Shown here one piece after another: positions 42,753 to 43,248 of a DNA stretch of 64,000 nucleotides. Position 1 is the stretch's first letter; each line of letters opens with the position of its first letter. Source of the DNA: Oscillospiraceae bacterium (GTDB taxonomy: Bacteria; Bacillota; Clostridia; Oscillospirales; Acutalibacteraceae). The position numbers were made by a program, and so were the translations under genes. The DNA lies in NCBI GenBank assembly GCA_009779995.1, contig WRDW01000003.1, forward strand, positions 2,392 to 66,391, read 5' to 3'. The notes under the pieces are model-generated. The model did no database searches. It was not told where the DNA came from and was given only the letters and a program-made list of their open reading frames with translations.

Positions 42753-42781
42753 TTGCGTTTCCAAAAATTGTATGCTATAAT
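42753..42781 (+). promoter_or_regulatory. Promoter of the small-ORF transcript (locus 1)
   Basis: TTGCGT, 17 nt, TATAAT. The 30-bp cassette is 27/30 identical to the ThuA-like promoter at 52613-52642. Confidence 0.55.
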
Positions 42782-42988
42782 GAAAAATAGAGTTGCGCCC
42801 TGCGGCGCAAACAAAACGCAGGGGACGCCAGCCGGTGAAAATTCGCGGCAGTTGCCGGTGCGGGTTTTACATAGGCCCCGAAGGCCAGCCCAGCCGCCGT
42901 AACCTTTCCTGCCATTACATTTCTTGCGCAAGTTCGGAGTGTTAAACGTCCCCTGCGGGGGCCGTTGAATGGAAAGGGGGGTGAAGCC

Positions 42989-43081
42989 ATGTGGGAAATC
43001 GTCGGTGTGGTCTTGCAGGCCACATCAATAATAGTAGCACTGGTTGAACTGTTCCTTTATTTGCGAGATCACCGTAAATAA
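42989..43081 (+). CDS. Candidate 30-aa hydrophobic peptide (type I toxin-like)
   Basis: SD GGAAAGGGGGG, then ATG. MWEIVGVVLQATSIIVALVELFLYLRDHRK: one TM helix and a basic tail. Too short for the ORF track. Confidence 0.45.
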   Translation: MWEIVGVVLQATSIIVALVELFLYLRDHRK

Positions 43082-43089
43082 ATTTACGG

Positions 43090-43195
43090 GAGCAAATAAA
43101 GCGAACTAGCCGCTCCCTATCGCAAAGTGCGCGGCTAGTTCGTTCATGTATGGCGAAAAGGATCACCGTCTCGCAACGCAACCCTCCCTGACAAC
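43090..43195 (-). ncRNA. Candidate antisense RNA to the 3' UTR of the locus-1 small-ORF mRNA
   Basis: Starts just downstream of the minus-strand promoter at 43199-43227. Ends at hairpin CGAACTAGCCGC..GCGGCTAGTTCG followed by CTTTATTTG. Confidence 0.35.
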
Positions 43196-43248
43196 TCCAT
43201 TATACATCGGCCAAATGGTTTTGTCAATGGGGAGGGCTTGTTTTTTTA
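43181..43248 (+). terminator. Long-hairpin terminator of the locus-1 mRNA
   Basis: CCCTCCC-TGACAA..CCAT / ATGG..TTGTCA-GGGAGGG followed by CTTGTTTTTTT. Its loop holds the antisense promoter. Confidence 0.55.
43199..43227 (-). promoter_or_regulatory. Convergent antisense promoter (locus 1)
   Basis: Minus strand: TTGACA, 17 nt, TATAAT. Confidence 0.55.

Follow-up and report, generated by a model that had tools for sequence, protein, structure and literature searches.

A cassette of about 500 bases was analysed at positions 42753–43248 of the window, that is, the whole 64,000-nt stretch of Oscillospiraceae DNA, to which all coordinates refer. It was interpreted as a type I toxin–antitoxin-like module of the 3′-overlap kind whose messenger RNA (mRNA) carries a translational switch, and a probability of approximately 0.6 was assigned to this reading, including the switch. 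The evidence centres on two predicted and mutually alternative structures. In the first, the 3′ untranslated region (UTR) pairs with the leader in three blocks; in the other, a leader box complementary to the Shine-Dalgarno sequence (the anti-SD box) pairs with the Shine-Dalgarno (SD) sequence itself. Both are supported by covariation among relatives of the cassette.

According to the proposed mechanism, a promoter with a TG-extended −10 element would drive a 460-nt mRNA encoding a putative toxin peptide, and a consensus promoter buried in the terminator of that same mRNA would drive a convergent antisense RNA of approximately 100 nt, the putative antitoxin, covering the stretch of 3′ UTR delimited by the stop-proximal hairpin and the terminator. 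The 3′ UTR would zip onto the leader in antiparallel order, engaging its 5′ end, the motif GCAGYCGGUGA, and the anti-SD box. The zipped mRNA would form a rod with the open reading frame (ORF) at its tip and with the anti-SD box held on an SD-like decoy. In the nascent mRNA the box would close the SD, and in the finished mRNA the decoy in the 3′ UTR would recapture the box and render the mRNA translatable. The antisense RNA, being leader-like in sequence, would compete with the leader for the 3′ UTR. When abundant, it would prevent or reverse the recapture, probably beginning by a loop–loop contact of the complementary hairpins; the released box would then fold back on the real SD and translation would stop. 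Moreover, the long duplex, together with the opening of the terminator and the 5′ end, would make the mRNA a target of RNase III and exonucleases. With little antisense RNA present, the 3′ UTR would recapture the box and the peptide would be made. The modelled pairings only tentatively favour a translatable closed conformer as the direction of the switch.

Alternative partners of the anti-SD box

The anti-SD box (CCUUUCCUGCCAU, 42903–42915, plus strand) has two candidate partners according to covariation and duplex energies, namely, the SD (42971–42977) and an SD mimic in the 3′ UTR (AUGGCGAAAAGG, 43150–43161, plus strand; columns 444–456 of alignment A3). A3 is an alignment of 18 full mRNAs and is the basis of all pair counts given here. 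The preliminary description of this locus, made from the sequence alone, had proposed that CCTTTCC (42903–42909) can pair with the SD core GGAAAGG (42971–42977), and this pairing was recovered in the minimum-energy fold of the whole mRNA. Across the 18 relatives, the seven-pair box:SD helix was compatible with 98.4% of alignment cells, and its pair 166:246 was C-G in nine rows and U-A in the other nine. The preliminary description did not include the second partner of the box, which is the stronger one and coincides with a 3′ UTR segment that the antisense RNA would cover. This box:mimic helix (LR3) comprises 13 pairs, eight of which were changed on both sides. In the subgroup of the window copy, the box (CCUUUCCUGCCAT) pairs with a mimic (AUGGCGGGAAAGG) located just after the stop hairpin.

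Two further long-range helices join the leader to the 3′ UTR. LR2 connects CAGCCGGUGA (42829–42838, plus strand) with UCACCGUCUCG (43163–43173) and was found by RNAalifold unaided. Its consensus consists of GCAGYCGGUGA in the leader and UYACCGUCUGC in the 3′ UTR, 94.4% of its cells were paired, and three pairs were changed on both sides, as exemplified by the combinations CGGUGA/UCACCG, CGGCGA/UCGCCG, GGCAAA/UUUGCC, and UGGUGAA/UUCACCA. LR1 connects GUUGCG at the 5′ end of the mRNA (42792–42797, plus strand) with CGCAAC (43177–43182; A3 columns 5–10 with 477–482), and the 3′ strands of LR2 and LR1 together occupy 43163–43182 on the plus strand, as identified with RNAalifold and pair counts. 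Across the family, a 5′-terminal GGUUGC pairs with GCAACC just upstream of the terminator. LR1 was mostly invariant, with one pair changing from A-U to G-C and one relative (L054) carrying GUCGC/GCGAC instead; as four A3 rows are misaligned by one column, its support consists of compatibility and not of covariation. Within the leader, hairpin P1 (CCCUGCG ... CGCAGGG, 42798–42823, plus strand) had 93.8% of its cells paired and three of four pairs changed on both sides, and hairpin P2 (GCGGCAG ... GCCGCCGU, 42845–42900, plus strand) had 97.2% of its cells paired and three pairs changed on both sides; both were obtained with RNAalifold and pair counts. In A3, the tip of P2 carries an extra hairpin (42874–42886) in the window copy and its closest paralogue.

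When applied to A3 unaided, RNAalifold returned P1, P2, LR2, the box:SD helix, a helix between the start codon and the ORF, the stop hairpin, and the terminator, and LR1 and LR3 were added by reading the alignment. All helices nest, such that the leader and 3′ UTR would form an interrupted rod of approximately 28 pairs (LR1, LR2, and LR3) with the SD, ORF, and stop hairpin at its tip. In the closed structure of 65 pairs, 90.1% of the cells formed a standard pair, whereas only 31–49% did so when the partners were slid by one to three columns. Moreover, 24 of these pairs were changed on both sides, compared with 16.2 ± 2.1 in kinship-blind shuffles, none of 500 of which reached 24.

The same pairings were compared by duplex energy between cognate strands and strands exchanged across groups, with permutation p values and with two peptide-retrieved loci included. 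The box:mimic duplex had a mean of −18.4 kcal/mol for cognate strands and −12.2 kcal/mol for cross-group strands (p ≤ 0.0002), and the corresponding values were −13.3 and −11.9 kcal/mol for the box:SD duplex (p ≤ 0.0002), −11.7 and −10.6 kcal/mol for LR2 (p = 0.0016), and −10.0 and −9.7 kcal/mol for LR1 (p = 0.10). In ensemble folds, the box:mimic helix was formed in 15 of the 18 full-length mRNAs, and blocking the antisense footprint raised the mean box:SD pairing from 2.2 to 5.1 pairs. As folds of single sequences with and without the antisense footprint gave inconsistent SD partners and a small change in accessibility, reliance was placed on covariation. In L051, a distant member from an AT-rich organism, the layout is kept with different complementary strings (GGUUUGCCC/GGGCAAACC).

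The predicted antisense RNA would act on precisely this part of the mRNA. Its promoter is a perfect TTGACA-17-TATAAT on the minus strand (43199–43227), which a consensus scan matched at 12 of 12 positions, compared with three of six for the −35 element of the mRNA promoter. The preliminary description had placed the whole promoter in the terminator loop. The promoter itself and the location of its −10 element were borne out, but the −35 element occupies the 3′ arm of the stem. The hairpin at 43101–43143, when read on the minus strand, is followed by CUUUAUUU, which yields a predicted RNA of approximately 100 nt (43090–43192, minus strand) folding into a 5′ stem-loop (SL1), a linker, and a terminator hairpin (SL2); we infer both of its ends from the promoter and the terminator. 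Both the expected length and the confinement to the 3′ UTR proposed earlier agree with this fold, the RNA being complementary to the 3′ UTR only and not to the ORF. The SL1 and SL2 fold was predicted for all 18 sequences, and RNAalifold recovered SL1 with covariation, including one pair that was G-C in ten sequences and A-U in six. The TTGACA element occurred at a 17-nt spacing in 18 of 18 aligned cassettes, although the search pattern held only the −10 element, and a perfect antisense promoter was also present in three loci that had been retrieved by the peptide alone. A cis-encoded antisense RNA gene overlapping the toxin mRNA is, as far as promoters and terminators can tell, kept in every copy. 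The stretch of the 3′ UTR that pairs with the leader (43150–43182) lies entirely beneath the antisense RNA, and therefore the first 50 nt of the antisense RNA resemble the leader, as seen in relatives where GCAGUCGGUGA in the leader corresponds to GCAGACGGUAA in the antisense RNA.

Architecture, peptide, and distribution of the cassette

The promoter, GC-rich leader of about 200 nt, anti-SD box and SD, 30-codon ORF, hairpins, and minus-strand promoter of the preliminary description were all located where it had placed them, and the convergent arrangement of a small ORF and an antisense RNA was kept across the family. The mRNA promoter is TTGCGT-17-TATAAT with a TG-extended −10 element (TGCTATAAT; 42753–42781, plus strand). 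As its −35 element matches the consensus at only three of six positions, it was passed over by the consensus promoter scan; in 17 of 19 relatives, a −35/−10 pair was nevertheless present 5–9 nt upstream of GGUUGC, the motif conserved at the 5′ end. The predicted transcription start is at approximately 42788. A 30-nt stretch on the minus strand (52613–52642), upstream of the minus-strand gene at 51838–52563, is 90% identical to the promoter region of the module (42753–42782).

The leader measures 207 nt from the −10 element to the ATG and has a GC content of 60%. Its SD (GGAAAGGGGGG, 42971–42981, plus strand) is separated from the ATG by the conserved spacer UGAAGCC, and this segment was nearly invariant in A3. 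Downstream of the ORF, the stop-proximal hairpin (ACUAGCCGC/GCGGCUAGU, 43101–43143) belongs to both strands, as its minus strand is the predicted intrinsic terminator of the antisense RNA according to the minus-strand fold and covariation. Its stem shows a compensatory change from A-T to G-C in the paralogue and covaries in L051 and in the divergent copy L069. In most relatives, the TAG stop codon of the toxin sits within this stem, and in most members the final codons (K-K-N, then TAG) are complementary to the U-run of the antisense terminator. In the subgroup of the window copy, the stop codon is TAA and lies 8–25 nt earlier than in most members. The intrinsic terminator of the mRNA, identified from its sequence and from pair counts, has the stem CCCUCCCUGACAA/UUGUCAAU-GGGGAGGG followed by U7 (43182–43247, plus strand) and encloses the antisense promoter; its arms can also be read as CCCTCCCTGACAA/TTGTCAAT-GGGGAGGG plus T7 over the same interval. 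Its helices, 8 and 9 in A3, had 91–98% of their cells paired and five pairs changed on both sides. As the fold of the full mRNA reached a z-score of −5.2 against shuffles and the arrangement recurs in about 25 distinct cassettes, the layout was considered more than chance.

The ORF (42989–43081, plus strand) encodes a predicted single-pass membrane peptide with a basic C-terminal tail, the putative toxin. It was characterised from the ORF list, an alignment of 19 homologous peptides (A2; 27–87% identity to the window peptide), substitution rates, hydropathy, and tail charge. All homologues have a hydrophobic core around LIALV[D/E]LFL, which holds a buried acidic residue, together with a basic tail and a start codon located 6–8 nt downstream of a strong SD. 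In each member, hydropathy over a 19-residue window reaches 1.9 or more, and the tail carries a net charge of +1 to +4. The ratio of nonsynonymous to synonymous substitution rates (dN/dS) was 0.13–0.38 within subgroups, and third codon positions varied most, with 2314, 1393, and 2744 differences at the first, second, and third positions, respectively. Judged from these substitution patterns, the ORF is a genuine gene under purifying selection. Its GC content at third codon positions (GC3) was 0.47, compared with approximately 0.8 in neighbouring genes.

The peptide had been called loosely Hol-Tox/BsrG-like. The transmembrane helix and basic tail of that comparison hold, but membership in the family does not. 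When the 19 peptides were compared with catalogued type I toxins (Fst/Ldr, TisB, Ibs, ShoB, Zor, and DinQ), only scattered chance matches with expectation (E) values of at least 0.05 were obtained, and the Hok model of Pfam matched none of the 19. A search of ESM-Atlas returned no look-alike at a score of 0.9 or higher, and one cluster at 0.78, 15% of whose members carry Hol_Tox. A phage holin was also considered and rejected; the PHROGs assigned no family to the 19 peptides, the one recurrent signal being a weak match of four of them to phrog_3488 (holin; best E value, 0.0044), and the neighbours are housekeeping genes. The peptide family is absent from Pfam and NCBIfam and the RNA is absent from Rfam, and the module was interpreted as an uncatalogued family of a known kind, type I toxin–antitoxin systems.

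The distribution of the family was determined with two kinds of search. With a DNA pattern consisting of the stop hairpin and the antisense −10 element, the module was detected in four of the 16 species that make up the genus. Among species-representative genomes, this pattern gave six loci, five in termite-gut Oscillospiraceae metagenome-assembled genomes (MAGs) and one in an uncultured Clostridia MAG. In metagenomes, 22 termite-gut contigs were matched, and the pattern yielded 25 distinct cassettes in total. Across 300 genomes of the taxonomic family, the hairpin pattern gave a single match, an unrelated AT-rich terminator. A profile of the 19 peptides, searched against 1.84 billion representative proteins, retrieved 22 clusters, all of the same family, in which the longer proteins are gene calls running back through the leader. 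Within the genus, this profile detected the peptide in three of the 16 species, whereas 150 further genomes from the order gave no match. The family has so far been seen almost only in sequences from termite-gut bacteria.

Three copies of the module were found in the source genome, a 1.79-Mb MAG that is 66% complete; another genome (G001) has three, and G007 has two intact copies and one decayed copy. In the source genome, a paralogue with 80% identity lies on contig 27 beside recO. Its homology to the window copy is bounded by the promoter and terminator, and the two leaders are approximately 95% identical. The third, divergent copy is located at the end of contig 19 (G000 contig 19, 34642–34734, corresponding to L069:1150–1596, minus strand). 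Its TAA stop codon falls within a hairpin that has covaried (CUAAGCCGCUCU/AGAGCGGCUUAG). The 3′ UTR blocks are the same, the copy is faced by a TTGACA-18-TATAAT promoter, and its leader is cut off by the contig end. The AT-rich member L051 (1340–1820), from an ENA metagenome (GAIO21-1), keeps the whole layout with a different hairpin. It is flanked by a Zip transporter gene on one side and a yebC-like gene on the other, has a hydrophobic core without the acidic residue, and shows no obvious terminator after the antisense −35 element.

The neighbouring genes vary by copy. The window copy is flanked by a Polysacc_synt/MatE-type flippase-like gene and yhbY, and the neighbours of copies other than the window copy and its contig 27 paralogue include a Zip transporter gene, an HTH (helix-turn-helix) regulator gene, and gatC. 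In ten sister species, yhbY is present and the module is absent beside it; the yhbY neighbourhood is not conserved, and no clean empty site could be aligned. In the window, the yhbY-like gene (CRS1_YhbY, 43406–43780) has its own TTGCAA-17-TACAAT promoter directly after the module terminator (43256–43405) and a 5′ UTR of approximately 120 nt with a GC-rich hairpin (about 43322–43363). Three copies (L020, L045, and L050) are decayed, having lost by deletion either the box, SD, and start codon or the antisense −10 element. L020 (1440–1590) retains only the 3′ end of the ORF, the hairpin, and the −35 element, and internal deletions in L045 and L050 have left the leader abutting mid-ORF sequence. 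In addition, unrelated short hydrophobic peptides of 22–31 residues were found joined to the same ACUAGCCGC stop hairpin, the stem sequence of which is highly conserved, and a facing consensus promoter (L013:1400–1720, L015:1400–1710, and L025, with a match near 3940–4044). The 3′ half of the cassette, in which the stop codon lies in a hairpin and a promoter lies in the terminator, appears from sequence comparison to be shuffled or shared among unrelated toxin peptides. The presence of several copies per genome, the patchy occurrence, the varied neighbours, and the decayed copies are behaviours typical of toxin–antitoxin modules.

The window copy is the most derived member of the family. It alone has an extra GC hairpin just upstream of the SD (42944–42968, plus strand), which is absent from the 80%-identical paralogue and all other relatives, and a 17-nt insert follows its stop codon. 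A 1-nt gap and G-to-A changes weaken its mimic, and that of the contig 27 paralogue is intact. The window copy may be an attenuated copy.

Weighing of the proposed switch against other explanations

Several observations weigh against the proposed reading. In the window copy, the box:mimic duplex reached only −11.8 kcal/mol, compared with a mean of −18.75 kcal/mol for the 18 aligned copies, and in the modelled fold its box occupies the SD even when no antisense RNA is present. Across the family, the unpaired probability of the SD was 0.33 in full-length mRNAs and 0.28 with the antisense footprint blocked, the SD being mostly paired either way, and it was 0.29 when the closed helices were enforced. 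The closed state tends to bring the SD together with the conserved core of the ORF, in a helix that is compatible with 85.8% of cells, compared with 36–64% for slid partners. The low predicted accessibility in both states arises because the SD and start codon can pair with the ORF core. As for the statistics, the shuffle and permutation tests on A3 and the duplexes ignore the kinship of the sequences, and the stop hairpin and −10 element belonged to the search pattern, such that their invariance among pattern-retrieved copies is by construction. Moreover, Pfam and NCBIfam, including the Hol_Tox, Fst, and Hok models, returned no family at E values up to 10, for five peptides at first and then for all 19.

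The SD accessibility values would also suit the same module working by the logic of hok/Sok or AapA1/IsoA1. The closed full-length mRNA would then be a stable, translationally inert store in which the ORF core holds the SD and start codon; the box:SD helix would block translation only during synthesis, processing would activate the mRNA, and the antisense RNA would mainly trigger decay. The helix between the start codon and the ORF that RNAalifold predicted (94% compatible) and the extended SD:ORF helix agree with such a store, and inert full-length transcripts with co-transcriptional metastable hairpins have been documented for aapA1 (PMC5416894, PMC6733600). However, the SD:ORF-core helix was no better than column shuffles, 83 of 500 of which reached the observed value, and the long-range pairing captures the anti-SD box and not the SD, such that 3′ trimming would free the box to close the SD. 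The antisense RNA is also directed at exactly that segment on which the box is captured, an arrangement with no easy explanation if this segment has no translational role. An inert store was considered a serious though less likely rival. Less likely still is a harmless small membrane protein, such as a regulator of a membrane complex, that is tuned by a cis-antisense RNA outside any toxin–antitoxin system. A specific partner could account for the conserved motif with its buried acidic residue, and no toxin family was matched, but the multiple copies, patchy occurrence within one genus, unrelated neighbours, decayed copies, and other peptides on the same 3′ module are traits of selfish toxin–antitoxin cassettes and not of housekeeping small proteins, and the GC3 of the ORF departs from that of the neighbouring genes.

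The length and GC content of the leader, and its near identity between two paralogues, could also be expected of a ligand-sensing riboswitch controlling the ORF; the preliminary description had noted strings resembling ydaO/c-di-AMP or cobalamin riboswitch cores and had named an Rfam match of the leader as a possible refutation of its own reading. This resemblance was not confirmed. In a search of 42700–43300 against Rfam at E values up to 10, the sole match was a chance one to DnaX, located on the stop hairpin (E = 0.41), and no known element matched the leader. At the gathering score, the window yielded only an unrelated T-box elsewhere and 12 homologous loci yielded none. The quoted strings form the arms of P1, P2, and LR2 or belong to the box, and they are explained by leader hairpins and pairings with the 3′ UTR. 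In addition, leader length varies between 102 and 207 nt by insertion of whole hairpins. A ydaO-like or cobalamin-like riboswitch was accordingly regarded as very improbable. Even less credence was given to a non-functional dispersed repeat with an ORF open by chance, a notion that would fit the multicopy and intergenic occurrence, but the frame stays open across peptides of 27–87% identity with dN/dS well below 1, and the register of both promoters and both terminators is preserved.

Known systems and significance of the module

The arrangement resembles that of bsrG/SR4, txpA/RatA, bsrE/SR5, and yonT/SR6, in which the genes are convergent, the toxin is small and hydrophobic, and the antisense RNA is directed at the toxin mRNA towards its 3′ end. 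Experiments on bsrG/SR4 of Bacillus subtilis showed that the terminator loop of the antitoxin first contacts a loop of the toxin mRNA, and binding at the 3′ end extends a distant SD helix from 4 to 8 bp, such that one RNA controls both decay and translation (PMC3834814). By analogy, the hairpin pair at 43101–43143, which is common to both strands, and the remote effect on the SD proposed here would be counterparts of these features. Unlike in bsrG/SR4, the antisense RNA is clear of the ORF, a long-range clamp of three blocks would join leader and 3′ UTR, an SD-like decoy would hold the anti-SD box, and the antisense promoter lies inside the terminator of the toxin mRNA. Neither peptide nor RNA is related in sequence to that system, and the hosts are high-GC termite-gut Oscillospiraceae and not Bacillus prophages.

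A toxin of about 30 residues and a 5′–3′ long-distance interaction in the full-length mRNA are also found in hok/Sok of plasmid R1 and aapA1/IsoA1 of Helicobacter pylori, a likeness by analogy and not by membership. In those systems, the 5′–3′ interaction and alternative SD-sequestering hairpins set the fate of the mRNA (PMC5416894, PMC6733600). The pairing in hok and aapA1 hides the SD, and the full-length mRNA is inert until 3′ trimming, whereas in the module described here the pairing would hide the anti-SD box. Moreover, the antisense RNA binds the 5′ part of the mRNA in hok and aapA1, whereas here it would bind only the 3′ UTR partner.

As in par (Fst/RNA II) of Enterococcus faecalis and the CD-RCd pairs of Clostridioides difficile, the host is a Firmicute, the transcripts converge, the peptide is a small membrane peptide, and the terminator regions are shared. 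By host class, the C. difficile CD-RCd pairs are the nearest characterised relatives (PMC7699646). The present peptides do not match the Fst model, unlike par, and the C. difficile toxins reside in prophages or mobile elements, whereas the copies here lie between housekeeping genes (yhbY and recO).

The window itself contains two further cassettes (46171–46479 and 60592–60893). They share the host and the convergent layout with the present module, and their stop codons likewise fall within the hairpin that would terminate the antisense RNA. They differ from the present module in having an unrelated peptide, a much shorter leader, and a different hairpin sequence. The preliminary description had already judged the peptides unrelated, and no similarity was seen between them; nor was DNA similarity detected between the module and either cassette. 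In the first of these cassettes (copy A, 46171–46479), a leader box (GCUCCCCU, 46229–46236) is complementary to its own 3′ UTR (AGGGGAGC, 46408–46415), beneath its antisense RNA. Judging from such complementarity, the decoy logic may be common to the module families of the window.

Whether the switch logic is new for type I systems was answered only tentatively, with somewhat less confidence than would make it the expected outcome. Its distinguishing parts would be the decoy-held anti-SD box, a clamp that activates translation, an antitoxin that mimics the leader, and a shuffled 3′ module. As part of the same tentative reading, repression would occur by release of an internal anti-SD box and not by contact with the ribosome-binding site.

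Type I modules are badly under-annotated, as both the peptide and the RNA escape gene callers. To our knowledge, few of those reported come from Clostridia, and we found no description of one in Oscillospiraceae or in symbionts of the termite gut. The peptide alignment and the DNA pattern allow such cassettes to be annotated in the genomes of gut symbionts. Furthermore, the approximately 25 natural variants, with their many compensatory changes, outline a ready-made model of a bistable mRNA and a leader-competing antisense RNA. If the switch works as proposed, it would extend the remote translational control known from bsrG/SR4 and reverse the logic of 5′–3′ pairing in hok and AapA1.

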